Below are positions 2,070 through 27,854 of a stretch of 32,000 nt of DNA, one piece after another; the first letter of the stretch is position 1, and every line of letters starts with the position of its first letter. A model generated the notes under the pieces. The model did not search any database. It was not told the DNA's origin and worked only from the letters and a program-made list of their open reading frames with translations. Made by a program: the position numbers and the translations under genes. Source of the stretch: Mycobacterium asiaticum (GTDB taxonomy: Bacteria > Actinomycetota > Actinomycetes > Mycobacteriales > Mycobacteriaceae); assembly GCF_001673315.1 (NCBI RefSeq), contig NZ_LZLQ01000078.1:58578-90577 (forward strand). The letters are read 5' to 3'.

Positions 2070-3182
2070 ATGACTGCGACGCTTCCGGATCACGAAATGC
2101 GCGGCGCGCGACCGGTTGATCTGGCCGACCGCCTGCTCGAGGTCAAACGCATCTACCACGAACCCGGCATCGAACGTTTCGAGCGGGCGCGTGAAGTCCT
2201 GGGCCGATTCCCCGACGCCGAGCGCGTTCAAGTCGCCTCGCATCAAGCCATATCGTGCCTGTACGGCAACGAGGGCAACGTCGAGGACTGGGTGCGGATC
2301 AAGCGGGAAACGCTGGTGCTGGGGGAGAAGAAGAGTCTGTCCGCGCGCCGTAACGAGCGGTCCAGCGACTGGATCGCACCGTCGACGGCCAATGGCTGCG
2401 CGATGGCGTGCTCATACTGCTACGTCCCGCGCCGCAAGGGATACGCCAACCCGATCACGGTGTTCGCCAACATCGACACGATCACCGGCTACCTCGAGCG
2501 ACACGCGGCCCGCCAGGGTGTCAAGCCGGAGCCCAACCAGTGCGATCCAGTCGACTGGGTCTACGACATCGGCGAGAACAGCGACTGCTCGGTCGACGCC
2601 ATGGTGTCGGACAACGTTCGCGATCTCGTCGACCTCTTCGCGCGAATCCCCAACGCCAAAGCCAGTTTTGCCACCAAATTCGTCAACCGGGATCTGCTCG
2701 GCTACGACCCGCGCGGCGGCACCCGGGTGCGGTTCAGCCTGATGCCCAAAGAGACGTCCCGCCTGGTCGACATCCGCACCTCCAAGGTGGCCGACCGGAT
2801 CGCGGCATTGGATGATTTCGTCGAGGCCGGCTTCGAGGTGCATCTGAATCTCAGCCCGGTCGTCGTTTACGAAGGCTGGCAAGAAGACTGGGCTGAGTTG
2901 CTCGATCAGATCGCCGACGGCACCAACGAACGCACCAAGCAACAACTCGCGGCCGAGATCATCTTCCTGACCCACAACGAGGGTTTGCACGAGGTCAATC
3001 TCGGATGGCACCCCAAGGCGGAAGAATTGCTGTGGCGACCCGATCTGCAGCAACTCAAGCGCAGCCAGAGTGGCCAGTGGAACGTACGGTACAAGAGTCC
3101 GTGGAAGGGCCGGTGGGTGCAGGATCTCACGGACCTGCTCGCGGTGAAGCTGCCCACCTGCCGGGTCCGCTACGCGTTCTGA
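2070..3182 (+). CDS. radical SAM enzyme, spore-photoproduct-lyase (SplB) family
   Basis: This is the C-terminal 370 aa of track ORF 1653..3182. The CX3CX2C cluster motif is present (ANGCAMACSYCYVPRRKGY). The overall pattern (LVLGEKKS, DWIAPSTANGC, IGENSDC, FATKF, RFSL.P) matches SplB-family proteins of non-sporeformers. The 1653..2069 extension has low GC3 and overlaps a better minus-strand gene. The start is ATG 2070 or ATG 2097. Confidence 0.8.
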   Translation: MTATLPDHEMRGARPVDLADRLLEVKRIYHEPGIERFERAREVLGRFPDAERVQVASHQAISCLYGNEGNVEDWVRIKRETLVLGEKKSLSARRNERSSDWIAPSTANGCAMACSYCYVPRRKGYANPITVFANIDTITGYLERHAARQGVKPEPNQCDPVDWVYDIGENSDCSVDAMVSDNVRDLVDLFARIPNAKASFATKFVNRDLLGYDPRGGTRVRFSLMPKETSRLVDIRTSKVADRIAALDDFVEAGFEVHLNLSPVVVYEGWQEDWAELLDQIADGTNERTKQQLAAEIIFLTHNEGLHEVNLGWHPKAEELLWRPDLQQLKRSQSGQWNVRYKSPWKGRWVQDLTDLLAVKLPTCRVRYAF

Positions 3183-3191
3183 GGTGACCAA

Positions 3192-4265
3192 ATGGGACAA
3201 CGCGACGACGACGCGACCGACAAGCTGCTGCAGGAACTGCTGTGGACCTACGGGCCGTGCGGTCAGGAAGACGAGGTGCGCGCCGTCTGCGCGCGCGAAC
3301 TGCGCCCCTTCGTCGACGACATGTGGACAGATGACGCCGGGAACCTGGTCGGCCATATCCGTGGTAGCAACTCTGCCCGCGAGGGCTCGGGGACACGGGT
3401 CATGGCGCATATGGACGAGTTGTCCATGCTCGTCAAGCGGGTGGAATCCGACGGCACGCTGCATTTGACCCAACTGGGCGTGATGTATCCCGGCAATTTC
3501 GGGTTGGGCCCGGTGGTGGTGCTCGGCGACCATGACGTCCTCACCGCGGTGCTGACCCTCGGATCGGAGCACACCACCAAAGAGAGCCAGCGCATCTGGG
3601 AGACCAAACCCGATCAGGGCGATCGGGCGCTGGATTGGCAGCACGTCTATGTCTTCACCGGCCACACCCACGACGAACTCGTTGCCGCCGGAGTCCATCC
3701 CGGCACCCGGGTCTGCGTGCACCGCAGCAAGAGGACGCTGGTCGAGTTCGGCGACTACGTCGGCTCTTACTTCCTTGACGACCGCGCGGCGGTCACTGCT
3801 CTGCTCAACGTCGCGCGACTGCTCCGCGAGAGCGACCAACGACCGGCCGAGGATCTGTATCTGGTTTTCACCACCAACGAAGAGGTGGGTGGGATCGGCG
3901 GTTCCTACGCCAGCGCCACCCTCCCCGGCACCCTCACGCTCGCTTTGGAAGTCGGCCCCACGGAGGAGGAGTACGCCACGACGGTCAGCGGCGGTCCGAT
4001 CGTCGGCTACAGCGACGCGCAGTGTGTCTACGACAAAGCCGTTGCCGATCGGCTGATGAAGGTCGCGCGCGAGCGAGGGCTCGACCCGCAGGCGGCCGTA
4101 CTGGGCGCGTTCGAATCCGACGCCTCGCACTCCAAGACCGCCGGTCTCACGCCGCGAGCGGGACTCCTGTGCCTACCGACGCTGAGCACGCACGGTTTCG
4201 AAGTCATCGCCCGCCACGCGATCGACGACATGGCCGCGGTAATCGTCGATTTCGTGCGCGAATGA
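3192..4265 (+). CDS. M42 family metallopeptidase (glutamyl aminopeptidase / FrvX-YsdC-like)
   Basis: 357 aa. GAGGTG lies 5 nt upstream of the ATG, which is 9 nt after the SplB-like stop. M42 metal-ligand motifs are present: AHMDELS, FLDDRAAV, TTNEEVGGIGG. Confidence 0.85.
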   Translation: MGQRDDDATDKLLQELLWTYGPCGQEDEVRAVCARELRPFVDDMWTDDAGNLVGHIRGSNSAREGSGTRVMAHMDELSMLVKRVESDGTLHLTQLGVMYPGNFGLGPVVVLGDHDVLTAVLTLGSEHTTKESQRIWETKPDQGDRALDWQHVYVFTGHTHDELVAAGVHPGTRVCVHRSKRTLVEFGDYVGSYFLDDRAAVTALLNVARLLRESDQRPAEDLYLVFTTNEEVGGIGGSYASATLPGTLTLALEVGPTEEEYATTVSGGPIVGYSDAQCVYDKAVADRLMKVARERGLDPQAAVLGAFESDASHSKTAGLTPRAGLLCLPTLSTHGFEVIARHAIDDMAAVIVDFVRE

Positions 4266-4327
4266 CCGCGAATAACCGCCAATGACCGCCGATGACCGCC
4301 GATGACCGCGAATAACCGCGAATGACG
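4261..4327. repeat. 10-bp tandem repeat, about 6.7 copies (RATRACCGCS)
   Basis: The units read aatgaccgcg aataaccgcc aatgaccgcc gatgaccgcc gatgaccgcg aataaccgcg aatgacg. The first unit contains the TGA stop (4263..4265) of the M42 peptidase. The repeat lies between convergent genes. Confidence 0.9.
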
Positions 4328-4340
4328 TGGGCGAGGGGCC

Positions 4341-4877
4341 TCAGCTCGAGGCGCTGAGGATCTTGATCGCGAAGACGAGCGAGTCGCCCGGCCGGATTCC
4401 GGCGCTGGGCTGACCCTCCGGGTAACCGTCGGCCGGCGTCATCGCGACGGCGACAGTCGACCCGACCTTCTGTCCCGCGATCGCCTTCTGGAAGCCCGTT
4501 ATGACACCGGTCAGGGAGAAGGAGACCGGCGCGCCCCGTTCGAAGCTGTTGTCGAATACCGTCCCGTCACGTCCGTTGACGCCCATGTAGCAGACCGACA
4601 CCCTCGCCATGGCCGGTACCACCGGTCCGTCTCCGGCGTGCAGCGTCTGCACCTGGGTCTGGTTCACGCTGAACGGACCCGTCACGGCCACTCGCGGTGC
4701 CGTCGCGTCGGTGGGTCCGGTGACCGCGACGCTGCCGGTGGTGCCGTTCAGCGTCCAGTCGGGGGTGGCGCTGTTCTGCGGGGCCGCGGTGGGGCAGGTG
4801 CCGGCCGCGTTCGCCGTGCCGGCCGGTATCAGAACGGTGGCCGCGACGCAGGCCGTGATCGCGGCGAAGGATTGCAT
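4341..4877 (-). CDS. FKBP-type peptidyl-prolyl cis-trans isomerase, exported (possible lipoprotein)
   Basis: Track ORF 4341..4931(-). The C-terminal FKBP fold motifs are VCYMGVNGRDGTVFDNSFERGAPVSFSL..VITGFQKAIAGQKVGSTV...PADGY. The N-terminus MQSFAAITACVAATVLIPAGTANA is signal-peptide-like, with an ITAC lipobox-like motif or cleavage after ANA. ATG 4877 is preferred, but an upstream start up to 4931 is possible. Confidence 0.85.
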   Translation of the reverse strand: MQSFAAITACVAATVLIPAGTANAAGTCPTAAPQNSATPDWTLNGTTGSVAVTGPTDATAPRVAVTGPFSVNQTQVQTLHAGDGPVVPAMARVSVCYMGVNGRDGTVFDNSFERGAPVSFSLTGVITGFQKAIAGQKVGSTVAVAMTPADGYPEGQPSAGIRPGDSLVFAIKILSASS

Positions 4878-4939
4878 CCAGGAGGGCTTCACGGGCGTGA
4901 CGCTACAGAAGCGGGATTGGCCTGGCGCCACCCGCCTCG

Positions 4940-5028
4940 GTGCGCCGCTCGCCCGACGGGAGCTCAGTGCGCCGTTCGCCCGACGAGATCCGGTGCGCCG
5001 CTCGCCCGACGAGATCCGGTCCGTCCGG
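4940..5028. repeat. 26/27-bp tandem repeat, 3 full copies plus a degenerate partial copy
   Basis: The copies are gtgcgccgctcgcccgacgggagctca (4940..4966), gtgcgccgttcgcccgacgagatccg (4967..4992) and gtgcgccgctcgcccgacgagatccg (4993..5018), followed by gtccgtccgg. The repeat lies between the arr stop (5030) and the FKBP gene start. Confidence 0.85.
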
Positions 5029-5029
5029 A

Positions 5030-5479
5030 TCAGTCGTAGATGACAGCCAGACCCCGACGCTCGAGGTCAGCCAACCCGTCACGCATCGCTTGCAGCTGTT
5101 CGGGCGAATGCCCCGACCAGTCGGTCAGCTCACCGACGATCCGCACCGGATCGCGGGTGCGGTAGGAGCAGGTGGGGTTTCCGGGGAGCTTCTTGTCGGT
5201 GACGTTCGGGTCGTCCTCCAACGGACCTTCCGGCTCCACGATGTAGATGCGGCAGCGCCCGTCGCCCTGAGCTAACTCGGCGCCCCAGACCGCGGCATCC
5301 AACGTGGCCGTCACGTAGACGTGGTTGGCGGTGCGGCCGCCGCCGTAGTTCGAACGGCGCCCCGGCACCAGCCGGTCACCTACCGCCAAGTCGGCCTTGG
5401 TTCCGTGCAGCAGCACACCTGACTCATAGACAACGAAAGGTTGTGGCACGCTCGGCACAAACAACTCCGTCCGTTTCAT
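5030..5479 (-). CDS. arr: NAD(+)-rifampin ADP-ribosyltransferase (Arr)
   Basis: 149 aa with an ATG start. The sequence LHGTKADLAVGDRL...HVYVTATLDAAVWGAELA...RIYIVEPEGPLEDDPNVTDKKLPGNPTCSYRTRDPVRIVGELTDWSGH...LADLERRGL follows, nearly motif for motif, the Arr sequences I recall (YHGTKANL..GD.L, H.YF.A....AVWGAELA, YIYIVEPTGPFEDDPNLTNK.FPGNPT.SYR...PLRIVG...W.GH). Confidence 0.9.
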   Translation of the reverse strand: MKRTELFVPSVPQPFVVYESGVLLHGTKADLAVGDRLVPGRRSNYGGGRTANHVYVTATLDAAVWGAELAQGDGRCRIYIVEPEGPLEDDPNVTDKKLPGNPTCSYRTRDPVRIVGELTDWSGHSPEQLQAMRDGLADLERRGLAVIYD

Positions 5480-5566
5480 ACGTGGTAGAGAAATTGTGCA
5501 GCACGGTAGCGTCGGATGTGATGGCTGGTGACCCGCAAGGTCAGATCAGAAAGGGAATCGACGGGC

Positions 5567-6817
5567 ATGGCAGCGTTAAGAACCGGCGAAGGTTTCCCCG
5601 ACGTCGTAGTCACCGCGGTCGCATCCACAACCGCGATTGCGCCGGACGCTGAGGATACCTGGCAGCAACTGTTGCAAGGGCGCAGCGGAATTCGCCAACT
5701 CGACAAGACGTTCGTTACCGAATTCGACTCACCGGTGCGCATCGGCGGACCGCTGCATGAGGACTTCGACGAACACCTCAACCGCGTCGAGTCGCGTCGA
5801 TTCGCGTTCATGCAGAAGATGGCGACGGTGCTGGGCCGGCGACTGTGGGAGCAGGCGGGCTCGCCCGAGGTCGACACCAATCGGTTGATGGTGGCGATCG
5901 GCCTGGGTCTGGGCAGCACCGAGGACATTCCGGCCTGGTATGAGGTGTGGAAGGTAAAGGGCATGCGCGCGGTCACGCCGCTGTCGGTGCAGAAATACAT
6001 GCCCAACGCTCCTGCCGCTGCCGTCGGACTGGACCGGGAGGCGAAGGCGGGTGTCGTGTCGCCAGTGGTGGCCGATGCGTCGGGCGCCGTGGCCATTGCG
6101 CAGGCGTGGCGGCAGCTCGTCCTCGGCGAGGCCGACATTGCGATTTGCGGCGGCGTGGAGACCGTCATCGAGGCCGTCCCGACCGCCACGTTCTGGCAGC
6201 TGGGCATGCTCTCCACCAACAACGACGACCCCGCCGGCGCCTGCCGGCCGTTCGATGCGCACCGCGACGGCATGGTGTTCGGGGAAGCCGGCGCGTTGCT
6301 CCTGGTCGAGACCGAGGAGCACGCCAAAGCACGTGGCGCGACCATTCTGGCCCGCCTGATGGGCGCGTCCGCAACCTCGGATGGATACGACGTCGTCGAA
6401 CCCGACCCGACCGGTCAGCGCGCCGGTGACGCCATCTCCCGCGCCGTCGATCTGGCCGGGCTGACGCCGGTGGATATCGACCACATCAATGCCCACGCGA
6501 CGGGAACGAAGAGCGGAGACCTGGCCGAAGCCCGGGCCATTCGGAGAGCGCTCGGTTCGCATACGCCCGCGGTGTACGCCCCGAAGGCGGCGCTGGGCCA
6601 CTCATTGGGCGCGGCCGGCGCGGTCGAGGCGGTACTGACCGTGCAGGCGCTGCGCGACGGAATCGTGCCGCCCACCTTGAATCTGAAGGAGCTCGACCCC
6701 GAGATCGATCTGGACGTCGTCGCCGGTGAGGCCCGGCGCGGCGACTACCGATATGCGGTCACCGAGTCATTCGGGCTGGGCGGAAATAACGTCGCCGTGG
6801 TGTTCGGCGCAGCCTAA
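5567..6817 (+). CDS. beta-ketoacyl-ACP synthase I/II (KasA/KasB/FabF) family paralog with active-site Cys replaced by Asp
   Basis: Track ORF 5528..6817 starts at GTG. The ATG at 5567 gives 416 aa, starting MAALRTGEGFPDVVVTAVASTTAI, which parallels the KasA N-terminus. Family motifs present are DIAICGGVE, RPFD..RDG.V.GEAGA.L..E..EHAKARGA, HINAH.TGT, YAPK.ALGHSLGAAGAVE, PPTLN and D.RYAV..SFG.GG.N. The nucleophile position reads SPVVADASG, with GAT at 6074..6076. Confidence 0.9.
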   Translation: MAALRTGEGFPDVVVTAVASTTAIAPDAEDTWQQLLQGRSGIRQLDKTFVTEFDSPVRIGGPLHEDFDEHLNRVESRRFAFMQKMATVLGRRLWEQAGSPEVDTNRLMVAIGLGLGSTEDIPAWYEVWKVKGMRAVTPLSVQKYMPNAPAAAVGLDREAKAGVVSPVVADASGAVAIAQAWRQLVLGEADIAICGGVETVIEAVPTATFWQLGMLSTNNDDPAGACRPFDAHRDGMVFGEAGALLLVETEEHAKARGATILARLMGASATSDGYDVVEPDPTGQRAGDAISRAVDLAGLTPVDIDHINAHATGTKSGDLAEARAIRRALGSHTPAVYAPKAALGHSLGAAGAVEAVLTVQALRDGIVPPTLNLKELDPEIDLDVVAGEARRGDYRYAVTESFGLGGNNVAVVFGAA

Positions 6818-7983
6818 CCCGCCAGTTCGCGAGCGATGGCGTCGAAGGCGCGCAGCGTATCGAGTGTGTGCGGTTCGTGCGAGTCCGGTTGGGCCGACAG
6901 TTTGGCGGCAACCATGTCCGCGGCTCGGTTCACGTAGATCATCTGACCGCACATCCCCATGCACAACATGACGTTGTTGCCCTGGTAGGGGAACCACATC
7001 TGGTTGCGGTACATCCCGCCCGGCATCTCGTTGTCGTCCGGACTGGCCGCGAATGCCTCACGCGAATCCGGGCCACCTTCCAACGTGTCGGCGATCCAAG
7101 CCGGCGGCACCACCTGAAAGTCTGTCAGCGATACGCCATCGCGCAGGAACAGCGACCCGAACCGGATCATGTCGGCAAGGCACGCGTTGACCCCGCCGTC
7201 GAACAGTCCGGTGCCCTCCGTATCGACGCCGATGGTGGCGTCAGCCTGGGCGCCGATGCGACTCCACAGCAGCTCCGACATCAGCTCGGGCATGCGTTGA
7301 GCGCCGGCCACCTCGCATATCCAGCCGAGTACGTCGGTTTCACATGACCGGTATTGAAACGGTCCGCCATGCGCCGACTCCTGCCGCAGGGTCAGCAGGA
7401 ACTCCTTCAGTGAGGAAGGGGAGTCCGGACTGCTCTTCGGCGCCCACCCGATCGCCTGGTCGAGGAGGTGAACCTCGGCGGCCGGGTCCCGGTAATTCTC
7501 GGAGAACGCGATACCTGACCTCATATCGAGGAGGTGGCGCACCGTCGCACCGTCGTATCCGCAGTTTCGCAGGGCGGGAACGTAATTCGTGACGGGCGCG
7601 TCGGGATCGATCAGCTTCGCCGCGTGCAAGGCGCCGACGACAGCGGCCACCAGCGATTTGCTCACCGAGAACAGCAAGTGGCGGGTCTGGGGTCCCAGCT
7701 CAGTGCAGTACTCCTCGGCCACCAGCGATCCGCGGTGGCAGACGGCCCAGCCGTCCGTCGCGGTGGTAGCCATCACCGTGCCAACAGTGGTTGTCACCCC
7801 GCCGGTGTTGGTCACCGCGATCTCGGCCAGGGGAGCCGTGGCTGCGGGCAAATCCGCGGCCGGCCCGGGCCCACGAGAAATGGTCGCGGTCGGCACCATG
7901 TCTTCGACGTGCTGAAAAGACCACTCCGCGTACGGTGCCGAAAACCAGTTGACCAGCGAGACGCCAGCCGGGACGCGAGTCAT
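6814..7983 (-). CDS. serine hydrolase, beta-lactamase-related (class C / esterase-like) family
   Basis: Track ORF 6814..8001(-), whose first codon is TTG. The ATG at 7983 (MTRVPAGVSL) sits 1 nt after the TGA stop (7985..7987) of the upstream ATP-grasp gene. The S-x-x-K nucleophile motif is LFSVSKSLVAAVVG. The length and composition fit the AmpC-like esterase or peptidase family. Confidence 0.8.
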   Translation of the reverse strand: MTRVPAGVSLVNWFSAPYAEWSFQHVEDMVPTATISRGPGPAADLPAATAPLAEIAVTNTGGVTTTVGTVMATTATDGWAVCHRGSLVAEEYCTELGPQTRHLLFSVSKSLVAAVVGALHAAKLIDPDAPVTNYVPALRNCGYDGATVRHLLDMRSGIAFSENYRDPAAEVHLLDQAIGWAPKSSPDSPSSLKEFLLTLRQESAHGGPFQYRSCETDVLGWICEVAGAQRMPELMSELLWSRIGAQADATIGVDTEGTGLFDGGVNACLADMIRFGSLFLRDGVSLTDFQVVPPAWIADTLEGGPDSREAFAASPDDNEMPGGMYRNQMWFPYQGNNVMLCMGMCGQMIYVNRAADMVAAKLSAQPDSHEPHTLDTLRAFDAIARELAG

Positions 7984-7984
7984 C

Positions 7985-9448
7985 TCACGCTCGCGCGACA
8001 AGGCGCGAGACGATCGGCGAGGCGGGCACCAGGGGAGTAGAGGCGAACTTCGCCTTCATGCCCTTCACCCATCGCCGGCACCGATCGGTGAGCTGATAAT
8101 CGTCGGTCTGCAGGTGGCCGCGGGTGACCAGCACCCCGAGTTGGGCGCCTTCCGAGCGCAAGTCACCGGGCGCGGCGACCCGCATGTAGAAGGCCTCAGA
8201 CCCGTCGAGCAGCGTTGCCCAGTCGTTCGCGGAACGGGCAAACGAGACGCGGCCTTCGTCATCGATCCGCCACACACCGGTGCGTGGCGTCGCGGTGAAC
8301 AGCTCCACCTCCGGCGACGTCTCGGTGATGATCGCCTGCCCCCACACTTCGTCTTCGCCGTAACCGCGCTCCCAGCGTGTGTTGATCTCTTCGATGTCGA
8401 GTTCGTACTCCACGTCCATGTACTCGAGGAGGTGGAAGAGAAACAGCGGCATGTCGGCATAGGCCTCGGTGGTCAGGTTCGTCATCGGACTGGCGCCGCT
8501 GAGCCGCGGGTTGACCTCGCCGAGGTAGAGCTCGCCGGAGTCCAGGTCGTGCAGGAGGTCCACCTCGAAGTAGCCGCGGTAACCCTCGCGGCTCAGCACG
8601 TCACCCAGCTTGCGCACCATTCCCCGAGCGGCGCGCGTCTGGTCCGGCGGCAGCACCTCACGCCAGATGTCATTGCCGCACCAGCTACCCCGGTGCGGAG
8701 TCAGTTCCGAATAACCAACGAGACTCGTCATCGCAGGTCCGATCACGGTGCCGTGCCGGGTGACGACGCCTTCGATGCACACCTCGACGTTGCGGATCCG
8801 CTTCATCACTTTGACTTCCTGCTGTCCGCTGAGGTCTGCAGCGTGCTCGTCCCAGTCGCGCTCACCGTGCACAAAGAAGGTGCCGCTGCCGGCGTTGCCG
8901 TAGGCGACGGAGATGACGAGGTCATCGCCGAGACCGGCATTCTCGGCGAGTGCGAGGAGTTCGTCGTAGGAACCGGCCCGTCCGATCGCGTGCGGCACGC
9001 TCGGTACGCCGGCCTCGTTGGCCAGTCGCGTCATGACGATTTTCGAGCCCAGGCGTTCACGCAGTTCCGCCGGTGGGTGCATCACCTCCAGACCAGCCTG
9101 CCGCGCCAGCGACTGGGTTTCGCTGTCCAACATCACGAAGCAAACTTTGCCGCCTGGCCCGCGGCCCGCGATGAATTCGAGGGTCTCGGAATCGGACAGG
9201 AGGTGGTTGCACACGTCGCCCATGGAGTCGAAGTCGAGGCGGTCGCGTCGCCGGGGGACGAACACGCGCGAATGCGTGCCCTCGAACGAGTCGAAGTAGG
9301 TCAGGTAGAAGAAGTTCCGTATCCACCGGTCAATACCCAGCAGGTTGAACGGGGTCGGGGAGATGAAGTACAGGGGAACGGTGTTGTTGTGAAAGAACGC
9401 GCGAACGTCCGACAGTCCGTTCAGTGGGCGGCGGGCCGCAGAGTCCAT
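7985..9448 (-). CDS. ATP-grasp domain protein (carboxylate-amine / peptide ligase-like)
   Basis: Track ORF 7985..9526(-). The central region, SKIVMTRLANEAGVPSVP...SYDEL...LVISVAYGNAGSGTFFV....EVKVMKRI....CIEGVV......GP...LVGY....PHRGSWCGND......GYRGYFEVDLLHD..SGELYLGEVNPRLSGA, has the ATP-grasp layout ending in E.NPR. Candidate starts are ATG 9448 (MDSAARRPL) or ATG 9466. Confidence 0.75.
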   Translation of the reverse strand: MDSAARRPLNGLSDVRAFFHNNTVPLYFISPTPFNLLGIDRWIRNFFYLTYFDSFEGTHSRVFVPRRRDRLDFDSMGDVCNHLLSDSETLEFIAGRGPGGKVCFVMLDSETQSLARQAGLEVMHPPAELRERLGSKIVMTRLANEAGVPSVPHAIGRAGSYDELLALAENAGLGDDLVISVAYGNAGSGTFFVHGERDWDEHAADLSGQQEVKVMKRIRNVEVCIEGVVTRHGTVIGPAMTSLVGYSELTPHRGSWCGNDIWREVLPPDQTRAARGMVRKLGDVLSREGYRGYFEVDLLHDLDSGELYLGEVNPRLSGASPMTNLTTEAYADMPLFLFHLLEYMDVEYELDIEEINTRWERGYGEDEVWGQAIITETSPEVELFTATPRTGVWRIDDEGRVSFARSANDWATLLDGSEAFYMRVAAPGDLRSEGAQLGVLVTRGHLQTDDYQLTDRCRRWVKGMKAKFASTPLVPASPIVSRLVARA

Positions 9449-9568
9449 TGCACAAGTTTGCGCCATGCCAGTGGCCGTGTCGTCTTTTCTGGCTCGACCG
9501 GTTGAGTATTGCGCTTTCAGCGCCACGTCGGATCAACTTGTCTATCGGTAGAGCAGGAGGTTCATCTG

Positions 9569-12491: not shown

Positions 12492-12770
12492 ATGCGGATC
12501 CAGCGGTCGTCTTACAAAACGTCGTACACTGTTGCGGTGGCTGACACGATCACCTTCAGGCCCGACGAAGACACATCGAAGGCGCTGGAGGTCCTGACAA
12601 AAGACGGAACCGCCGTGTCCGTAGCCGTTCGATCTGCTCTTATCGATGCCGCACGACGGAAGGCCGGCGCGGCGATCCGTGCCGAGGCGGAAAGGCTTGC
12701 CGAAGACGAGTCCGACCGCGCTGAGGCCATGCAGGTACTACGCGACATGGAGACGTTGCGTGCGTGGTGA
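12492..12770 (+). CDS. type II antitoxin, ribbon-helix-helix type (MazE-like partner of the downstream MazF)
   Basis: 92 aa. TITFRPDEDTSKALEVLTKDG...SVAVRSALIDAAR fits a beta-strand plus two helices, as in RHH antitoxins, followed by an acidic C-terminal tail (AEDESDRAEAMQVLRDME). It overlaps the toxin start by 11 nt. The true start may be the GTG at 12537. Confidence 0.7.
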   Translation: MRIQRSSYKTSYTVAVADTITFRPDEDTSKALEVLTKDGTAVSVAVRSALIDAARRKAGAAIRAEAERLAEDESDRAEAMQVLRDMETLRAW

Positions 12771-13071
12771 GGTCTTTCAGTTGCGTGCCCCGCGGGGGAG
12801 TCGCGGTCACGAACAGTCCGGTTCCCGCTACGCCGTAGTAGTCCAGTCAGATCAACTGCCCCTGTCGACGTGGCTGGTTGCACCAACATCTGCGTCGGCT
12901 CGTGCCGCGAGCTTTCGTCCCGAAGTTGAAATCGGCGGCGTGAACACCCGCGTGCTTGCCGAACAGGCCGCCGCAGTCGACCCGAGCCGACTCGGCACGA
13001 GCGTCGGGTTCCTAAGCTTCGATGAGATGCGCCGCGTTGATGCGGCACTGCGCATCGTCCTCGATCTATGA
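12760..13071 (+). CDS. mazF: type II toxin, MazF/PemK family endoribonuclease
   Basis: This is the C-terminal part of track ORF 12646..13071, starting at the GTG at 12760. VRGEVFQLRAPRGSRGHEQSGSRYAVVVQSD......LVAPTS.S....SFRPEV.I.G..T.VL.EQ..AVD..RLG...G.LS..EM..VD.AL..VLDL resembles mycobacterial MazF toxins (RGE.W...L.P..GSE....RPAVVV). Confidence 0.8.
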   Translation: MRGEVFQLRAPRGSRGHEQSGSRYAVVVQSDQLPLSTWLVAPTSASARAASFRPEVEIGGVNTRVLAEQAAAVDPSRLGTSVGFLSFDEMRRVDAALRIVLDL

Positions 13072-13460: not shown

Positions 13461-13539
13461 TGTCACTGTGACGGAATCGTCGTCCGCTACCCGACCGGAA
13501 GACCGCCCTGCCACGGGGCGGTGATTTGTCACTGTGACG
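13461..13539. promoter_or_regulatory. two identical copies of the palindrome-containing 13-mer TGTCACTGTGACG, 66 bp apart (candidate operator pair)
   Basis: The copies lie at 13461..13473 and 13527..13539. Each core, GTCAC-T-GTGAC, is a perfect inverted repeat. They sit 120-200 bp upstream of the DUF302 gene start (13660). Confidence 0.4.
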
Positions 13540-13659
13540 AATTGCGTTGCGCCACTGGGCTATTCGAGTTGCACACGCAGACGGCAATCGCGCGGATTAC
13601 CACAATCTTCGGAGGGTACCCAAGTCACGTACGGACGACGGGTTCGGCGGAAGGAAGCA

Positions 13660-14070
13660 ATGATGACACTCGCACTGGCAGCGGCCCTCGATGTTCCGTT
13701 CGATGAGGCGGTCGAGCGCACCCGGTCCGCGCTAGCCGAACAGGGTTTCGGAGTGTTGACCGAAATCGATGTCCAAGCCACGCTCAAGGCCAAGCTCGAC
13801 GAGCAGATCGAGCCCTACCTGATCCTGGGCGCCTGCAACCCCAACCTGGCCCACCGCGCCCTTGGAGTGAACCGCCAGATCGGCCTTCTACTGCCGTGCA
13901 ATGTCGTCGTACGGACCGACCCCGACGCGCCCGGCTCCACGCTCGTCGAGGCGATGAACCCGGACCTCATGGTCCAGGTCTCTGGCGAATCCGAACTCGA
14001 ACCAGTCGCCCGGGACGCCACGGAGAAACTCAGTGCCGCGATCAAAGCTCTGTCCGGAGGTGCACGATGA
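13660..14070 (+). CDS. DUF302 domain protein
   Basis: This is the C-terminal 136 aa of track ORF 13534..14070. GGAAGGA lies upstream of the ATG at 13660. F.EAVERTR.AL.EQGFGVLTEIDV.ATLK.KL.......YLILGACNP..A..AL......G.LLPCNVVV resembles the DUF302 family as I recall it. Confidence 0.8.
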   Translation: MMTLALAAALDVPFDEAVERTRSALAEQGFGVLTEIDVQATLKAKLDEQIEPYLILGACNPNLAHRALGVNRQIGLLLPCNVVVRTDPDAPGSTLVEAMNPDLMVQVSGESELEPVARDATEKLSAAIKALSGGAR

Positions 14071-14672
14071 CGGCCATCGACTTCTACTTCGATCCGGTGT
14101 GCCCCTTCGCCTGGGCCGCATCGCGCTGGCTGCTCGAACAGGCCGATCACCGCGACCTGGACATCACCTGGCACCTGATGAGCCTGGCTGTACTCAACGA
14201 AGGCCAGGAGCCCGACTCGGAGAAAGAGCGCGAACACCTTGCGTTGTCACGTCAACTAGGGCGCGTCGTGCTCGCCGCCGTCGAAGTCAGCGGTCCCAAG
14301 TTGACCGAGCCGCTGTACACCGCGCTCGGCCGGCATCTTCACGATGCGGGCGAGGACATGACACCAGAGCTAGTCGGCGAGATTTTGTCCGAGTGCGGAG
14401 TCGACAGCAGTCTTGCCGAGGCGATGTTCGATGACGAGCGTGATGACGTGCTCAGCCTTGCGCACCAGGAAAGCCAAGATGCACTCGGCGAAACCGGCGG
14501 TTGCCCAATCCTGTGCATCGACGACAACTGCTTTTTCGGTCCGGTGCTGTGCGGAATCCCTACCGGCGACGAGGCGGACGACCTGTTCGAGGCGCTCGTC
14601 ACCCTCGCCCACTCACCGAAGTTCGCCCAGCTAAAGCGACCCCACAGGAAGCCGCCGACGGCATCCTCGTGA
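14067..14672 (+). CDS. DsbA-like thioredoxin-fold protein
   Basis: This is the C-terminal 201 aa of track ORF 13896..14672. Its ATG at 14067 overlaps the DUF302 stop in an ATGA, indicating translational coupling. The N-terminal motif [22 protein letters not shown] is typical of actinobacterial DsbA-family / FrnE-like proteins. Confidence 0.8.
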   Translation: [201 protein letters not shown]

Positions 14673-15245: not shown

Positions 15246-16640
15246 ATGAGCTTTTTCATGCTTCCCCCGGAAATCACTTCTGCCAGGATGTTCTCCGGCG
15301 CCGGTTCGGGACCCATGTTGGAGGCAGCGGCGGCCTGGCGCTCGCTAGCCACCGAATTGGATTCGGCGGCGGAGTCTTTCTCGACGTTGACATCGGGGCT
15401 CACCGCCCAGGCATGGCAGGGTCCGGCGGCCCAGGCAATGGCAGCTGCCGCGGCACCATATGCGAATTATTTGGCGACGGCGGCGGTACAAGCGGTCGGA
15501 ACGTCGACGCAAGCGCAGGCAGTCGCCGGCGCCTTTGAATCGGCACTGGCAGCCACGGTTCACCCCGCGCTCATCTCAGCCAACCGATCGAACCTGGTGT
15601 CGCTAGTGCTGTCGAATCTCTTCGGACAGAATGCCCCGGCGATCGCCGCGGTCGAGAGCCTCTACGAAGAAATGTGGGCTGCGGACGTGACGGCCATGCT
15701 CGGCTATCACGCCAATGCGGCGGCTGCGGTAGCGCAACTAATTTCGCCCGCCGCCAGCGCGTTGCCCAGCTTCGGCTACGGCAACATCGGCGAAGGCAAC
15801 ATCGGGTTCTTCAACACCGGCACCCTCAACTTCGGCCTCAACAACGTCAGCCCCTTCTTCACCCCCACCGACCCCATCACCACCTTCGGCGGCTTCGGCA
15901 TCGCCAACAACGGCACCGAACTCGTCGGCGCATTCAACACCGGCAACCAAAACGTCGGCATCGCCAACAACGGCGTCTTCAACATCGGCATCGCCAACAC
16001 CGGCACCTACAACTCCGGCCTGCCCATATCCCTGCTCACCGCACTCGGCGTCGGCAACCAAGGCAACTGGAACCAAGGCTTCTTCAACACCGGCAACCAC
16101 AACCTCGGCATCGGCCTGGTCGGCGACAACCTCATCGGCATCGGACCACTGCACATCAACGCCGCCAACCTGCCCAGCCTGCCCAGCTTCCCGAGCCTGC
16201 CCAGCCTGCCGTCGATACTGCCCGCCGCCAGCGTGTTGCCCAGCTTCGGCTACGGCAACATCGGCGAAGGCAACATCGGGTTCTTCAACACCGGCACCCT
16301 CAACTTCGGCCTCAACAACGTCAGCCCCTTCTTCACCCCCACCGACCCCATCACCACCTTCGGCGGCTTCGGCATCGCCAACAACGGCACCGAACTCGTC
16401 GGCGCATTCAACACCGGCAACCAAAACGTCGGCATCGCCAACAACGGCGTCTTCAACATCGGCATCGCCAACACCGGCACCTACAACTCCGGCCTGCCCA
16501 TATCCCTGCTCACCGCACTCGGCGTCGGCAACCAAGGCAACTGGAACCAAGGCTTCTTCAACACCGGCAACCACAACCTCGGCATCGGCCTGGTCGGCGA
16601 CAACCTCATCGGCATCGGACCACTGCACATCAACCGATAG
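15246..16640 (+). CDS. PPE family protein with MPTR-like Asn/Gly repeat C-terminus
   Basis: 464 aa. The N-terminus [33 protein letters not shown] is canonical for PPE proteins. The PPE domain is about 170 aa and includes NAPAIAA.E..Y.EMWA.DV.AM..Y. The tail is made of NxGxGNxG-type repeats ([32 protein letters not shown]). Confidence 0.92.
15746..16634 (+). repeat. 474-bp-period tandem duplication inside the PPE gene: two 415-bp copies with 1 mismatch
   Basis: 15746..16160 equals 16220..16634 except at one position (c at 15760 versus t at 16234). The track independently shows identical antisense ORFs at 15776..16006 and 16250..16480. The protein block [11 protein letters not shown]...IGIGPLHIN therefore occurs twice verbatim. 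Confidence 0.95.
16170..16214 (+). repeat. 9-bp microrepeat (CTGCCCAGC-like) x5 encoding [15 protein letters not shown], the linker between the two PPE duplicates
   Basis: The units are ctgcccagc, ctgcccagc, ttcccgagc, ctgcccagc and ctgccgtcg. They read in frame within the PPE CDS. Confidence 0.85.
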
Positions 16641-22794: not shown

Positions 22795-24294
22795 GTGTCG
22801 TTTCTAGCCGTGGCTCCTGACTGGCTGTCGTTGGCCGCAGCGGACCTGGAAGGCATCGGATCTTCGCTGCATGCCGCGAGTGCGGCCGCGGCCGCTCCGA
22901 CCACCGGGCTGGCGGCTGCCGCGGCCGACGAGGTGTCCGCCGCGGTGGCGACGTTGTTCGGGGAGTTTGGCGACGAGTTCCAGTTGGTGAACGCCCGGGT
23001 GGCTGCGTTTCACCAGCAGTTCGTGCAGTCGCTGAATGCTGCGACGGGCTCGTACGCGTCTGCCGAGGCGGCGGCCGCGTCGGTGCTGGACCCCGTTTTC
23101 GATGTCATCAACGCGCCCACCCAAATTCTGTTAGGCCGGCCGCTGATCGGCGACGGAGCACCTGGTACTGCCGCGAATCCGAACGGTGGCGCCGGCGGGA
23201 TCTTGTGGGGTAACGGTGGCGCTGGTTACTCACCAACCACCCCGGGCGCAACAGGTGGCGCCGGCGGTGCGGCCGGTTTGATCGGCAACGGCGGCCCCGG
23301 TGGTACTGGTGGCGGTATCGCCGGAATTAACCGGGGGCTCGGCGGTCCCGGCGGGGCTGCCGGCCTGCTGTGGGGCAACCCCGGTTTCAGCGGTGCAGGT
23401 TTGGACGGTCGTACCGTCCCGATGCCGACGATCAACGTCACCGAGCCAGTCGTGAATCTTGCGGTGAACGGCCACAGCACCGGGCCAATACTGGTCGACA
23501 CTGGTTCCGCAGGACTCGTCGTTCAAATGAAAGACGTCGGCGGGCCGCTGGGGCTGCTGCGCATGGGCCTGCCGACCGGATTGAACGTCAGTGCCTACAG
23601 CGGCGGCCTGACGTACCTATACGCCACCTTCCCCACGACGGTGGACTTCGGAAACGGCCTGGTTACCGCGCCAACCGGCGTGAACGTCGTGCTCTTCTCG
23701 CTACCGACGTCGCCATTCGCGATCTCGGCGTACTTCACCGAGTTCTTGAAGAACCCGTTCACCACTCCATTCGACGCCTACTTCGCGACCGCGGGGGTGG
23801 ACGGTGTCTTGGGCGTTGGACCCAATGCGGTGGGCCCGGGGCCGAGCATTCCCAACATGGCATTGCCCGGCAACCTCAACCAAGGCGTCCTCGTCGATAT
23901 GGACAACGCGATACTTCGCTTTGGTCCCAACGACTATCAGAACCCGATCCCCTATGCCTCACTGAACGGCTCACCCATCACCACCCTCTACGTGCAAGTC
24001 GGTAACACCCCTGTCGTAGCCGTGCCTTCCATTGTCGACTCCGGCGGCGTGTATGGCACCATGCCCGCGTCGGTAATCGGCGGCGCTGGCGCGTTGCCCG
24101 CAGGCACGCAGATCACGGTCTACGCGGACTCCAACATGCAGAAGCCGTTGTACTCCTTCAACACGAACGGCCCTTATCAACCGACGGTTATTTCGTCAGG
24201 GCTGATGAACACGGGCTATCTGCCCTTCGCCAACCGTCCAATCTATATTGACTACACCACGCCCGGTGGTAGCACCATTGTTAATAACCCTTAA
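22795..24294 (+). CDS. PE family protein with a short Gly-rich (PGRS-like) linker and a C-terminal pepsin-like aspartic protease domain (PecA-type)
   Basis: 499 aa. The start is GTG, preceded by GGGGGG. The PE domain reads MSFLAVAPDWL..AA.DL.GIGS.L.AA.AAAA.PTTG...AAADEVSAA.A.LF......F......AFH..FV..L......YA..EA. The linker consists of GGAGG runs. The two catalytic-type motifs are ILVDTGSAGLVV and IVDSGGVYGTMP. Confidence 0.85.
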   Translation: MSFLAVAPDWLSLAAADLEGIGSSLHAASAAAAAPTTGLAAAAADEVSAAVATLFGEFGDEFQLVNARVAAFHQQFVQSLNAATGSYASAEAAAASVLDPVFDVINAPTQILLGRPLIGDGAPGTAANPNGGAGGILWGNGGAGYSPTTPGATGGAGGAAGLIGNGGPGGTGGGIAGINRGLGGPGGAAGLLWGNPGFSGAGLDGRTVPMPTINVTEPVVNLAVNGHSTGPILVDTGSAGLVVQMKDVGGPLGLLRMGLPTGLNVSAYSGGLTYLYATFPTTVDFGNGLVTAPTGVNVVLFSLPTSPFAISAYFTEFLKNPFTTPFDAYFATAGVDGVLGVGPNAVGPGPSIPNMALPGNLNQGVLVDMDNAILRFGPNDYQNPIPYASLNGSPITTLYVQVGNTPVVAVPSIVDSGGVYGTMPASVIGGAGALPAGTQITVYADSNMQKPLYSFNTNGPYQPTVISSGLMNTGYLPFANRPIYIDYTTPGGSTIVNNP

Positions 24295-25179: not shown

Positions 25180-26334
25180 ATGCTGCAGACGGTCGCGGTG
25201 CGCGGCTATCGCTCACTGCGCGAACTCATCCTGCCGCTGGGCCGGCTGTCCGTCGTCACCGGTGCGAACGGCACCGGCAAATCCTCGGTGTACCGCGCGC
25301 TGCGGCTACTGGCCGATTGCGGTCGCGGCGAGGTCATCGGTTCCCTGGCCCGGGAGGGCGGGCTGGAATCGGTGCTGTGGGCCGGGCCGGAGCAACTCGG
25401 CGGGGCCCGTCGGGAAGGCAAGGCCCAGGGCACTGCACGCACCCGGCCGGTATCCCTCGAACTTGGTTTTGCCGCAGATGATTTCGGTTACCTGGTCGAC
25501 CTAGGCATACCGCAGATGGCCGGCTATCGGTCGGCGTTCGCGCGTGACCCGGAAATCAAACGCGAAGCCTTGTTCGTCGGACCGGTACTGCGACCCGCCA
25601 CCACGCTGGTGCGACGCACCCGCGAATTCGCGGAAGTCAGCGGGGATTCGGGGTTCGAGGAGCTGTGCCGGACGCTGCCGGCGTACCGCAGCGTGCTCGC
25701 TGAATATGCTCACCCGCAAGCACTTCCGGAGCTTGCCGCCGTGCGGGAGCGGCTGCGCGGCTGGCGGTTCTACGACGGCTTTCGCGTCGACGCCGCCGCG
25801 CCCGCCCGCCAACCGCAAGTGGGGACCCGCACGCCGGTGCTGTCCGATGACGGCAGGGACCTAGCCGCTGCGATCCAGACGATCGTCGAGGCGGGCTTCG
25901 ACGACCTGAGCCGTATCGTCGCCGACGCATTCGACGGCGCCACCATCGCGGTCGATGTCAGCAACGGCCTGTTCGATCTTCAGCTGCAGCAGCGGGGCAT
26001 GTTGCGGCCACTGCGGTCAGCCGAATTGTCGGACGGGACACTGCGTTTCCTGCTCTGGGCCGCCGCGTTGCTCAGCCCGCAGCGACCGTCGCTCATGGTG
26101 CTCAACGAACCCGAAACCTCACTGCACCCCAGCCTGGTCGGTCCGCTGGCGTCGCTGATCCGTATCGCGGCCGAACACACCCAGGTGGTGGTGGTCACCC
26201 ATTCCGCATCGCTGCGCGAACTGCTCAACGACGACGACGCGGTCGAGATCGAACTGTACAAAGATTTCGGCGAAACGCGGATCACCGGTCAGGGTCTGCT
26301 GACGACGCCGCCGTGGGACTGGGGCAAACGGTAA
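25180..26334 (+). CDS. ABC/SMC-like AAA ATPase (RecF/OLD-type fold), no adjacent partner gene
   Basis: 384 aa. AGGAGA lies 5 nt upstream of the ATG. The N-terminus L..V.VRGYRSL.......L..L.V.TGANGTGKSS.Y.AL.LL contains the Walker A motif. The signature-like motif is LSDGTLRFL, Walker B is LMVLNEPETSLHP, and the H-loop region is VVVVTHS. Confidence 0.75.
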   Translation: MLQTVAVRGYRSLRELILPLGRLSVVTGANGTGKSSVYRALRLLADCGRGEVIGSLAREGGLESVLWAGPEQLGGARREGKAQGTARTRPVSLELGFAADDFGYLVDLGIPQMAGYRSAFARDPEIKREALFVGPVLRPATTLVRRTREFAEVSGDSGFEELCRTLPAYRSVLAEYAHPQALPELAAVRERLRGWRFYDGFRVDAAAPARQPQVGTRTPVLSDDGRDLAAAIQTIVEAGFDDLSRIVADAFDGATIAVDVSNGLFDLQLQQRGMLRPLRSAELSDGTLRFLLWAAALLSPQRPSLMVLNEPETSLHPSLVGPLASLIRIAAEHTQVVVVTHSASLRELLNDDDAVEIELYKDFGETRITGQGLLTTPPWDWGKR

Positions 26335-27010: not shown

Positions 27011-27040
27011 GTGCAAAGTGTGCATTTCGTGCAAATATTG
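27011..27040. promoter_or_regulatory. GTGCAAA direct repeats / TGCAAATAT motif in the CMD-TetR divergent region (candidate TetR operator)
   Basis: The sequence is gtgcaaagtgtgcatttcgtgcaaatattg. GTGCAAA occurs at 27011 and 27029, immediately upstream of the TetR ATG (27047). It shares the TGCAAA(A)TAT core with the palindrome at 27688..27704. Confidence 0.35.
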
Positions 27041-27046
27041 ATTGCT

Positions 27047-27655
27047 ATGTCGACCCAGTTAGGCCTGCGCGAGCGGCGCCGCCGCCAGACCAGTGCGGAC
27101 ATCCGCGGCGCTGCCGTGCGTTTGGCACAGGCGCGGGGCTGGGACAAGGTCACGATCGAGGAGATCTGCGTCCAGGCGGGAATCTCGACCCGCACGTTCT
27201 TCAACTACTTCCCGAACAAGGAAGCCGCGATCGCCTACGGCCCCTCTGACCTGCCGCCGGAGCTGGCCGCCGAGTTCGTCGCCGCCGGGCCGGCCCCCTA
27301 TTCGGTGGTGCTGGAAGAACTCATTACCCTTGCCGCACACCATCTGCGGGACATGCCGCCCGAGCGCGAGCAGGCGGTATGCATGCTGGATCTGGCTAAA
27401 ACGACACCGGCGGTGCTCGCGGCGTTCCTGGCAGATCTGGAACGGTTTCAGACGCACCTCACCGACATCGTCGCCCAACGCCAAGGCATGCGCGCCGATG
27501 ACGAAATTCCGGCATTGATCGCCGCTTTGGCGTTGACGGCCGTGCGTTCGGGTATAGAACGCTGGTCAAGCAGCGATTCGCAAGACGCCGGGGACACGCC
27601 GATGCCCTACGTCGAACGAGCTGCCGCGCTGGTCAACAGCATCTTTTCCACCTGA
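27047..27655 (+). CDS. TetR/AcrR family transcriptional regulator
   Basis: Track ORF 27011..27655. The ATG at 27047 gives MSTQLGLRERRRRQTSADIRGAAVRLAQARGWDKVTIEEICVQAGISTRTFFNYFPNKEAA, the TetR N-terminal HTH signature (T.E.I...AG.S.RTFF.YF..KE.A). Confidence 0.88.
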   Translation: MSTQLGLRERRRRQTSADIRGAAVRLAQARGWDKVTIEEICVQAGISTRTFFNYFPNKEAAIAYGPSDLPPELAAEFVAAGPAPYSVVLEELITLAAHHLRDMPPEREQAVCMLDLAKTTPAVLAAFLADLERFQTHLTDIVAQRQGMRADDEIPALIAALALTAVRSGIERWSSSDSQDAGDTPMPYVERAAALVNSIFST

Positions 27656-27687
27656 GGGCGTGACCAGCGACACACAAACTTGCATAG

Positions 27688-27704
27688 TCTGCAAAATATG
27701 CAGA
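27688..27704. promoter_or_regulatory. perfect inverted repeat TCTGCA-AAATA-TGCAGA, candidate operator upstream of mmpS-mmpL
   Basis: The arms are 6 bp and separated by 5 nt, in an AT-richer patch between the TetR stop (27655) and the mmpS start (27855). Confidence 0.45.
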
Positions 27705-27854
27705 TCATGTATCCATGGTTCGGCCGCTGCGCCCGACCATGCCTCGGTCCCCCGGGGCATTTTTCCACTGCACGTTCGAACACGTTGTGACGCAAGGCGA
27801 CTTGTCAGCACCACCAAGCGGGAAAGGGATCGGGCAGTTGTCAGTGAATGAGCG

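Follow-up and report, generated by a model that had tools for sequence, protein, structure and literature searches.

Few drug targets and chain-length determinants of the mycobacterial envelope have been studied as closely as KasA and KasB, the enzymes that elongate meromycolate chains on the acyl carrier protein AcpM. In beta-ketoacyl-acyl carrier protein (ACP) synthases of the KAS I/II type, transfer of the acyl chain to an active-site Cys must precede both decarboxylation of malonyl-ACP and formation of the C-C bond (PMC9519891). In yeast two-hybrid and co-immunoprecipitation experiments, all eight mycolic-acid methyltransferases of M. tuberculosis interacted with KasA and with KasB, and the condensing enzymes interacted among themselves (PMC3245277). 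We examined a stretch of 32,000 nucleotides from Mycobacterium asiaticum (contig NZ_LZLQ01000078.1, positions 58,578 to 90,577), referred to as the window, whose own numbering is used below. It carries a gene for a KasB-like protein in which Asp stands in the place of the acyl-accepting Cys, and we hold with high confidence that this gene and its relatives, here called the Asp clade, represent a selected, non-condensing derivative of KasB. The gene and the codon concerned are as follows.

5567..6817, plus strand: KasB-derived paralog of the Asp clade, 416 amino acids, stop codon included (open reading frame and alignment).
6074..6076, plus strand: codon GAT for Asp170, at the position of the KasA nucleophile Cys171 (alignment to KasB and KasA).

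The reading frame opens with an ATG at 5567, closes with a TAA at 6815..6817 and is unbroken over 416 codons. Homologs begin with MAxLRTG, which corresponds to 5567, and translation from an alternative in-frame GTG at 5528 is therefore improbable. Pfam recognized PF00109 (1.6e-42) and PF02801 (5.2e-32) in the product, and the NCBIfam model NF005916 'KasA/KasB family' scored it at 728.5 bits (cutoff 560), so that the protein belongs to this family by its hidden Markov model. Its best match among PDB sequences was M. tuberculosis KasB (2gp6, E = 8e-187; phmmer), followed by KasA entries (E about 3e-152), with 69% identity to KasB and 58% to KasA. KasB 2gp6 was also the top Foldseek fold match of an AlphaFold2 monomer model (mean predicted local distance difference test score 66, predicted template-modelling score 0.74), which was built on a shallow 72-sequence alignment and is too poor for active-site geometry. 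A 100% identical NCBI entry is named 'KasA/KasB family beta-ketoacyl-ACP synthase [Mycobacterium asiaticum]'. Domains and family model aside, the nucleophilic Cys, the gatekeeper Phe and a location in the fabD-acpM-kasA-kasB-accD6 operon are all absent, and the protein should therefore not be filed as a functional KAS.

We then considered the nucleophile column itself. The peptide around Asp170 reads SPVVADASGAV, and the Asp lies opposite the Cys of KasB 2gp6 (PVVADASGA against PVSACASGA in the phmmer alignment to PDB sequences) as well as opposite residue 171 of KasA, a Cys that the C171Q PDB entries show as Gln. No other Cys fits this column because the alignment around Asp170 contains no gaps. 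Family counts out of 264 refer here to the matches listed in three homolog searches, each started from another part of the family and limited to its best 120. Asp occupied the Cys171 column in 264 of 264 family proteins and Gln in none, compared with Cys in 79 of 79 KasA and KasB sequences; at least 263 cluster representatives, 69-100% identical to the query, each carried the Asp. In a scan taking one genome per species, 80 loci were recovered, which divided into 38 of the Asp type and 42 of the Cys type. The Asp loci showed 70-89% identity and had no adjacent kasA (38/38), whereas the Cys loci (67-70% identity) were true kasB genes with kasA directly upstream in nearly all. The Asp codon was GAC in 31 and GAT in 7 of the 38 genomes, and the corresponding codon was TGC or TGT in all 79 KasA and KasB genes.

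The same protein was found on three contigs, one of them the Logan assembly of run SRR3391852 with matching neighbours, and its presence in independent assemblies makes an assembly or sequencing error unlikely. The original prediction, made from the letters of the window, had read this 416-residue frame with an Asp codon at 6074..6076 in the nucleophile position and had thought a sequencing error improbable; the alignment to KasB and KasA bears out the former, and the latter holds given 264 of 264 Asp residues and the identical protein on three contigs. It had also suggested looking for another Cys that might fit the column and surveying orthologs for the Asp: the gap-free alignment offered no such Cys, and every ortholog surveyed carried Asp (264/264).

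To place this residue among ketosynthase (KS) domains more broadly, 321 KS-domain alignments from 150 diverse representatives were read at the Cys and two His columns. Most were C-H-H (271) and 10 were Q-H-H. Asp together with intact His residues was encountered only in fragments of the Asp clade itself, and this confinement makes the combination look selected rather than drifted. It was also noted that fused two-domain proteins resembling a KS joined to a chain-length factor (CLF) (P0243, P0251 and P0331, about 820-880 amino acids) have D-S-D, G-A-D or G-H-H in their second domain. The D-S-D domain holds the only other nucleophile-column Asp in the sample, and there the His residues are missing.

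The origin of the clade was assessed with a neighbour-joining tree rooted on eight FabF-type representatives from a 50%-identity library. The Asp clade was monophyletic in 100 of 100 bootstraps and grouped with KasB in 100 of 100, while KasB alone was recovered in 55 of 100, and the Asp clade is thus sister to, or nested in, KasB. From this tree the Asp gene is a KasB-derived duplicate. The scaffold had initially been described as KasA-like, which is right as to the KasA/KasB family, but the affinity is with KasB specifically (69% against 58% identity, and the bootstraps just given) and not generically with KasA. The duplication took place within Mycobacteriaceae, and in the duplicate the acyl-accepting Cys gave way to a fixed Asp.

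The carriers with species names are environmental mycobacteria, both slow- and fast-growing, including M. asiaticum, the M. gordonae group, M. rhodesiae, M. monacense, M. litorale, M. novocastrense, M. celeriflavum, M. pulveris, M. crocinum and M. pallens, among others, and many soil metagenome sequences carry an Asp-clade protein as well. Among the named matches listed there was none from the M. tuberculosis complex. An M. smegmatis ortholog was likewise not among the matches listed in the three homolog searches and the genome scan, where closer relatives filled the lists. As a separate observation, a contig labelled 'Candidatus Sericytochromatia' (JBLNEK010000108.1) bore a kasA-kasB pair of the usual mycobacterial kind (68% and 60% identical to the query) and probably entered its bin as a contaminant.

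The Asp clade is faster-evolving than its relatives (root-to-tip length 0.70, compared with 0.54 for KasB and 0.46 for KasA). A ketosynthase without its nucleophile would be inactive, and one explanation is therefore a pseudogene in decay, a mutation confined to this strain or an error in sequencing. The median pairwise dN/dS, the ratio of nonsynonymous to synonymous substitution rates by the Nei-Gojobori method, lends this some initial appeal, being 0.21 in the Asp clade against 0.13 for KasB and 0.12 for KasA. These values are nevertheless well below 1, and between the window gene and its closest M. asiaticum-type relatives the ratio falls to 0.08-0.09. The Asp clade is under purifying selection. 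Its members are 66-99% identical among themselves, and conservation is even along the protein, with no decayed region and with cap and core included. An intact frame, dN/dS of 0.08-0.21 and an Asp that stays invariant through synonymous codon changes rule out a pseudogene; Asp in 264 of 264 proteins, its recurrence across the 38 genomes and the independent assemblies rule out an error or strain-specific lesion, and the change from TGY to GAY takes two substitutions. We regard this explanation as already refuted, with next to no probability left to it.

We sought to determine which other active-site residues had changed along with the nucleophile. Residue roles were taken from a review of KasA (PMC9519891), KasA numbering is used, and counts are over 239 or 264 Asp-clade sequences. 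The positions concerned in the M. asiaticum protein are listed here.

6203..6205, plus strand: Gly213, codon GGC, replacing Arg214 (alignment).
6272..6274, plus strand: Met236, codon ATG, replacing Phe237 of the aromatic cavity beside the active site (alignment).
6389..6391, plus strand: Asp275, codon GAC, replacing His276 in the loop before the Val278-Ala279-Pro280 malonyl-site segment (alignment).
6494..6496, plus strand: His310 (KasA His311), the first catalytic His, codon CAC, in HINAHATGT; His in 263 of 264.
6584..6586, plus strand: Lys340, codon AAG, in YAPKAALGHSLGAAG; Lys in 264 of 264.
6599..6601, plus strand: His345, the second catalytic His, codon CAC, in YAPKAALGHSLGAAG; kept here, not fixed in the clade.
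6776..6778, plus strand: Leu404, codon CTG, replacing the gatekeeper Phe404 of the GFGG loop (alignment).

The original prediction had reported both His residues and the Lys in this protein, and all three can be read as His310, Lys340 and His345. Its further statement that the rest of the machinery was intact stands for His311 and Lys340, but not for Phe404, Phe237, His276 and Arg214, which have changed, nor for His345, which is H in 230 sequences, N in 27, Q in 5, P in 1 and D in 1 (Asn or Gln in about 12%). About 90% of the clade has an aliphatic residue at the gatekeeper position (L 130, I 73, M 36, F 23, V 2), compared with Phe in 79 of 79 KasA and KasB sequences. Position 237 is Met in 256 of 264 (Phe in 78/79 KasA/KasB), position 276 is Asp in 258 of 264 (His in 79/79) and position 214 is Gly in 256 of 264 (Arg in 79/79). 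We take this Arg214 of KasA and KasB to be the equivalent of the ACP-docking Arg206 of E. coli FabF. The malonyl-site residue Ala279 has become variable and mostly charged (E 98, K 66, Q 22, R 21). Further switches include Gly115 to Ala and Ile/Val347 to Leu, and His407 is variable.

Much of the remaining protein is retained: at 133 of the 193 positions invariant in KasA and KasB, 90% or more of the Asp clade has the KasA/KasB residue. The basic cluster Arg74/78/79 is kept in 239 of 239 sequences, Arg135 as R or K in 238 of 239 and Thr315 in 237 of 239. Among acyl-channel and cap residues, Asn148 and Pro206 are each kept in all 239, Met146 in 238, Glu203 in 236 and Glu199 in 235; Ile202, Val142 and Leu116 of the same region are kept too, as are Glu354, Asp319 and Glu322. 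The loop elements Asp273 (the loop hinge), Gly405, Gly406 and Asn408 are each present in 239 of 239. In these alignments, remodelling took in the nucleophile and the gate together with part of the malonyl pocket, and the His/Lys core was kept along with the apparatus that binds AcpM and the chain. In KasB, phosphorylation of Thr in the HATGT motif has a regulatory role, and it was noted in passing that the Asp clade keeps the threonines of this motif (Thr315 in 237/239).

A carboxylate cannot hold an acyl-thioester, and we therefore infer that ping-pong Claisen condensation is impossible for this protein, which is predicted not to condense acyl-AcpM with malonyl-AcpM. The original prediction had pointed to malonyl-ACP decarboxylases and non-catalytic heterodimer partners, which are putative roles for this protein. 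What it might do instead of condensing was considered first from the catalytic residues. The protein could be a decarboxylase of malonyl-AcpM, or of a related acyl-AcpM, comparable to natural KSQ domains, in which Gln replaces the Cys. His311 and residue 345 would act on the thioester by polarising its carbonyl, and would then stabilise the enolate; the smaller gate would admit malonyl-AcpM without acylation; and Asp170, lying where the acyl-Cys otherwise meets C-alpha, would protonate the enolate to give acetyl-AcpM. The near-absolute retention of His311 (263/264) and Lys340 (264/264) is consistent with this, as is the restriction of position 345 largely to H, N and Q, all hydrogen-bond donors and reminiscent of the Cys-His-Asn triad of KAS III. 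The two pocket Phe residues were replaced by hydrophobic and not polar residues, and the Q-H-H domains (10 of the 321 in the sample) are a natural instance of a Cys-less KS with both His residues in use. However, the carboxylates of Asp170 and of the malonyl group would repel each other, and the lost Arg214 together with the variable charged residue at Ala279 counts somewhat against a decarboxylase. In animal fatty acid synthase, moreover, Witkowski and colleagues reportedly saw in 1999 that only Gln strongly raised decarboxylation and that Asn, which is isosteric with Asp, did not. We know of no physiological need for acetyl-AcpM, as mycobacterial FAS-II, the type II fatty acid synthase, is primed by FabH with long acyl-CoAs, and this activity would have no obvious tie to the methyltransferase neighbours described below. 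A decarboxylase is thus possible, if on the unlikely side.

The same invariant residues could alternatively point to Asp170 as a new catalytic residue, acting as nucleophile or general base on an AcpM thioester. Hydrolysis or acyl transfer through an acyl-aspartyl anhydride would release a meromycolate intermediate in the manner of a thioesterase; removal of a proton from C-alpha or C-gamma would give an enolisation of the isomerase or epimerase type. Asp, His311 and Lys340 have stayed invariant even though the proteins are only 66-99% identical to one another, the loop of the backbone oxyanion hole has been preserved, with Gly405 and Gly406 in every sequence, a second acid has been fixed at position 276 (Asp in 258/264), and Asp with intact His is restricted to this clade in the 321-domain sample. 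To our knowledge there is no precedent for Asp-based catalysis in the thiolase superfamily, and this lack, the replaceable His345 (Asn, Gln, or rarely Thr or Pro), the wholly inferential character of the idea and the missing acceptor- or transporter-type partner gene in the conserved neighbourhood lead us to consider it quite unlikely. A broader form, in which Asp170, His311, the H, N or Q at 345 and Lys340 would together make up a new catalytic centre that reuses the thioester-enolate machinery for a non-condensing reaction on meromycolyl-AcpM, is a doubtful proposition. Possible reactions of such a centre include double-bond isomerisation by proton transfer at C-alpha or C-gamma, decarboxylation with Asp as the proton donor, and anhydride-mediated release. 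Were it correct, the methyltransferases next to the gene would have their substrates made or processed by this reaction, which would be an unknown enzymatic step in the tailoring of mycolic acids by environmental mycobacteria.

The gene neighbourhood was examined across the 38 Asp-clade loci. A mycolic-acid methyltransferase gene was found within 6 kb in 28 of the 38 (two or more in 25), compared with 1 of 42 kasA-kasB loci. The original prediction had called the gene an orphan, which is accurate locally for the M. asiaticum locus but not for these 28 genomes. The methyltransferase genes lie tail-to-tail with the Asp-clade gene, mostly as a tandem pair, whose members match NF040660 at 443 and 463 bits (for example 7259..9318 on the minus strand in locus L008); the nearest solved structures are UmaA/MmaA1 for the proximal enzyme and CmaA1/PcaA for the distal one. 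Other recurrent neighbours, each in at most nine loci, were a StpK7-like kinase, a hemophore-related protein, an APH(6)-like protein, an MprF-like protein, DUF2237, an aldehyde dehydrogenase and MmpL. In L008, the Ser/Thr kinase gene (2724..4358, plus strand) has StpK7/MSMEG_1200 as its best NCBIfam match, below cutoff, and the small hemophore-related gene lies at 4784..5116 on the minus strand; each of these stands upstream of the Asp-clade gene in about nine loci.

A comparable arrangement is listed for M. smegmatis. In two supplementary tables of M. smegmatis transcriptome studies, MSMEG_1203 (methyltransferase), MSMEG_1204 (3-oxoacyl-ACP synthase 2) and MSMEG_1205 (methyltransferase) are adjacent, and the Ser/Thr kinase MSMEG_1200 is close by. 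MSMEG_1204, known from annotation tables alone, is a candidate for the Asp clade. MSMEG_1203 and MSMEG_1205, by annotation the counterparts of the tandem methyltransferases, are among the most cold-induced M. smegmatis genes (PMC10454040).

The methyltransferase linkage and the retained chain-binding residues favour reading the protein as a binder or platform. We tentatively propose that it would be a non-elongating, meromycolyl-AcpM-binding subunit of a specialised assembly of FAS-II and methyltransferases. In such a subunit, Asp170 would substitute for the thiolate of the resting Cys(-)/His311(+) ion pair, and the smaller gate residue would admit the chain without prior acylation. AcpM docking and threading of the long acyl chain towards the old active site would probably persist, with the retained Arg cluster, Thr315 and the acyl channel maintaining the binding of AcpM and its cargo. 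The protein might then keep meromycolyl-AcpM in place for the methyltransferases or offer it to them, or it might compete with KasB. The platform reading fits the known role of KasA and KasB as docking partners of mycolic-acid methyltransferases.

Several observations weigh against it. The absolute invariance of Asp, His311 and Lys340 looks catalytic and favours the decarboxylase or a new Asp-based chemistry, as a pure platform has no obvious need for it. The loss of Arg214, invariant in KasA and KasB, could weaken AcpM docking. The Asp gene and the methyltransferase genes are convergent and hence do not form a single operon, and 10 of the 38 genomes, M. asiaticum among them, have no methyltransferase neighbours although the gene is strongly constrained. 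In the cold, the log2 fold changes of MSMEG_1203 and MSMEG_1205 are about 3.8-4.0, against 0.19 for MSMEG_1204.

A related possibility is that the protein is an obligate partner of KasA or KasB in a CLF-like heterodimer, altering chain length while itself non-catalytic. The pairing of a KS with a CLF is the classical use of a Cys-less KS, the condensing enzymes interact mutually (PMC3245277), and a KasB-derived scaffold with uniform conservation, including cap and core, would suit a dimer partner. KS-CLF pairs are normally adjacent and co-translated, however, and no partner KS lay within 6 kb in the window or in the 38 loci, nor did any FAS-II gene recur in those 38 loci. The CLF-type domains sampled were also without His (D-S-D, G-A-D), whereas the Asp clade keeps it. 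We consider a CLF-like role improbable.

Around the M. asiaticum gene itself, the following features were recorded.

5480..5566, no strand: divergent intergenic region between arr and the ketosynthase-like gene, 87 bp (open reading frame ends).
5030..5479, minus strand: arr, rifampin ADP-ribosyltransferase (PF12120, 4e-47; NF000318 'rifampin_ARR_Ms', 250.5 bits, cutoff 250).
6814..8001, minus strand: beta-lactamase-fold protein (PF00144).
7985..9526, minus strand: ATP-grasp protein (NF005096 'biotin carboxylase' PRK06524, 864 bits).

As had been stated at the outset, arr is divergent with 87 bp between the two starts (5480..5566), and the gene stands outside a fabD-acpM-kasA-kasB-accD6 context: no fabD, acpM, kasA, accD6, other FAS-II, ACP or methyltransferase gene was found in the 32-kb window. 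No sigma-70-type consensus was seen in 5480..5566, although such a consensus is uninformative for mycobacterial promoters, and promoter, terminator and Rfam scans returned nothing informative. The beta-lactamase-fold and ATP-grasp genes form an overlapping pair that converges on the ketosynthase-like gene, with a 4-bp overlap at its stop. This pair is conserved only in M. asiaticum-type loci, and arr adjoins the ketosynthase-like gene only there (the window, L001, L003 and L081); the full order, with arr on one side of the ketosynthase-like gene and the beta-lactamase-fold and ATP-grasp pair on the other, was seen again in just three loci, the closest of the M. asiaticum type. The M. smegmatis arr gene is MSMEG_1221. 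Taken with the position of MSMEG_1203-1205, this would make the arr adjacency in M. asiaticum a remnant of one ancestral neighbourhood, and suggests that it was left over after the methyltransferases were lost or moved.

The arr gene also raises the possibility that the protein is a decoy that sequesters ketosynthase antibiotics of the thiolactomycin type. Resistance-type neighbours, namely arr here and the APH(6)-like and MprF-like genes elsewhere, would fit a decoy, as would the tighter binding of thiolactomycin by KasA C171Q than by the wild type (PMC9519891). Thiolactomycin contacts Phe404, Phe237 and the 278-280 segment, however, which are the very residues changed in the Asp clade, and the identity of the neighbours varies by genome, with the methyltransferase association alone being consistent. 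A decoy is accordingly very improbable.

The remaining features of the window lie further downstream.

12646..13071, plus strand: MazF/PemK-like toxin.
13534..14070, plus strand: DUF302 protein.
13896..14672, plus strand: Rv2466c-like mycothiol-dependent nitroreductase/DsbA-like protein.
15246..16640, plus strand: PPE protein with pentapeptide repeats.
22795..24294, plus strand: PE-PGRS protein with a C-terminal aspartyl-peptidase-like domain.
25180..26334, plus strand: AAA_21/AbiEii-type ATPase, with locally lower guanine-plus-cytosine (GC) content (0.605 at 24-25 kb).
27011..31186, plus strand: TetR regulator, then an MmpS-MmpL pair.
From 31302 past the window end: DUF222 (13E12-repeat type) gene.

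Between 11.6 and 15.2 kb, where the toxin, DUF302 and Rv2466c-like genes lie, no open reading frame had the usual high third-position GC, and GC content was about 0.62 compared with 0.65-0.69 nearby. The stretch with the AAA_21/AbiEii-type ATPase may be a small defence or mobile insertion.

In the literature on KasB paralogs, Cys-to-Asp ketosynthases and MSMEG_1203/1204/1205, no description of the Asp clade was found, in agreement with the original prediction that no described family fits. The name 'kasB2' in PMC5430705 refers simply to MSMEG_4328. The Asp clade is a large and conserved group of KasB-derived proteins, undescribed in that literature, that very probably do not condense and that probably have a role in mycolic-acid tailoring. 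A third, widespread protein, derived from KasB and in all likelihood non-condensing, has been overlooked, since annotation pipelines give it the ordinary label 'KasA/KasB family synthase', and extra condensing capacity should not be inferred from such annotations. The clade is also a natural Cys-to-Asp experiment on the KS active site, and its pairing with two methyltransferases offers a handle on how these enzymes gain access to AcpM-bound meromycolate chains.

Among known systems, the Asp clade is closest to KasB (Rv2246, PDB 2gp6), the FAS-II beta-ketoacyl-AcpM synthase that completes meromycolate elongation. The two share length, thiolase fold, 69% full-length identity, His311, Lys340, the acyl-channel residues and Arg74/78/79; the Asp clade differs in its changed Cys171, Phe404, Phe237, His276 and Arg214, its location outside the kas operon and its faster evolution. 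KSQ domains and Cys-to-Gln ketosynthases (KasA C171Q, FabF C163Q/C164Q) resemble it as nucleophile-less KS proteins with both His and the Lys, and Cys-to-Gln replacement is a known route from a condensing enzyme to a decarboxylase or acyl-enzyme mimic. Unlike these, the Asp clade has Asp, which is charged and one carbon shorter, instead of Gln; it is a stand-alone protein of FAS-II type and not a polyketide synthase loading domain, and its gate and malonyl-pocket residues are remodelled. The CLF of type II polyketide synthases is likewise a selected, Cys-less and non-condensing KS paralog, but it is adjacent to or fused with its KS and usually lacks His, whereas the Asp clade has no adjacent KS and keeps His311 and Lys340. 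The MSMEG_1203-1204-1205 locus resembles the Asp-clade neighbourhoods in combining a synthase, methyltransferases and a kinase, with the order methyltransferase-synthase-methyltransferase instead of synthase-methyltransferase-methyltransferase. If MSMEG_1204 belongs to the Asp clade, the question of its function would be directly testable in a model organism.

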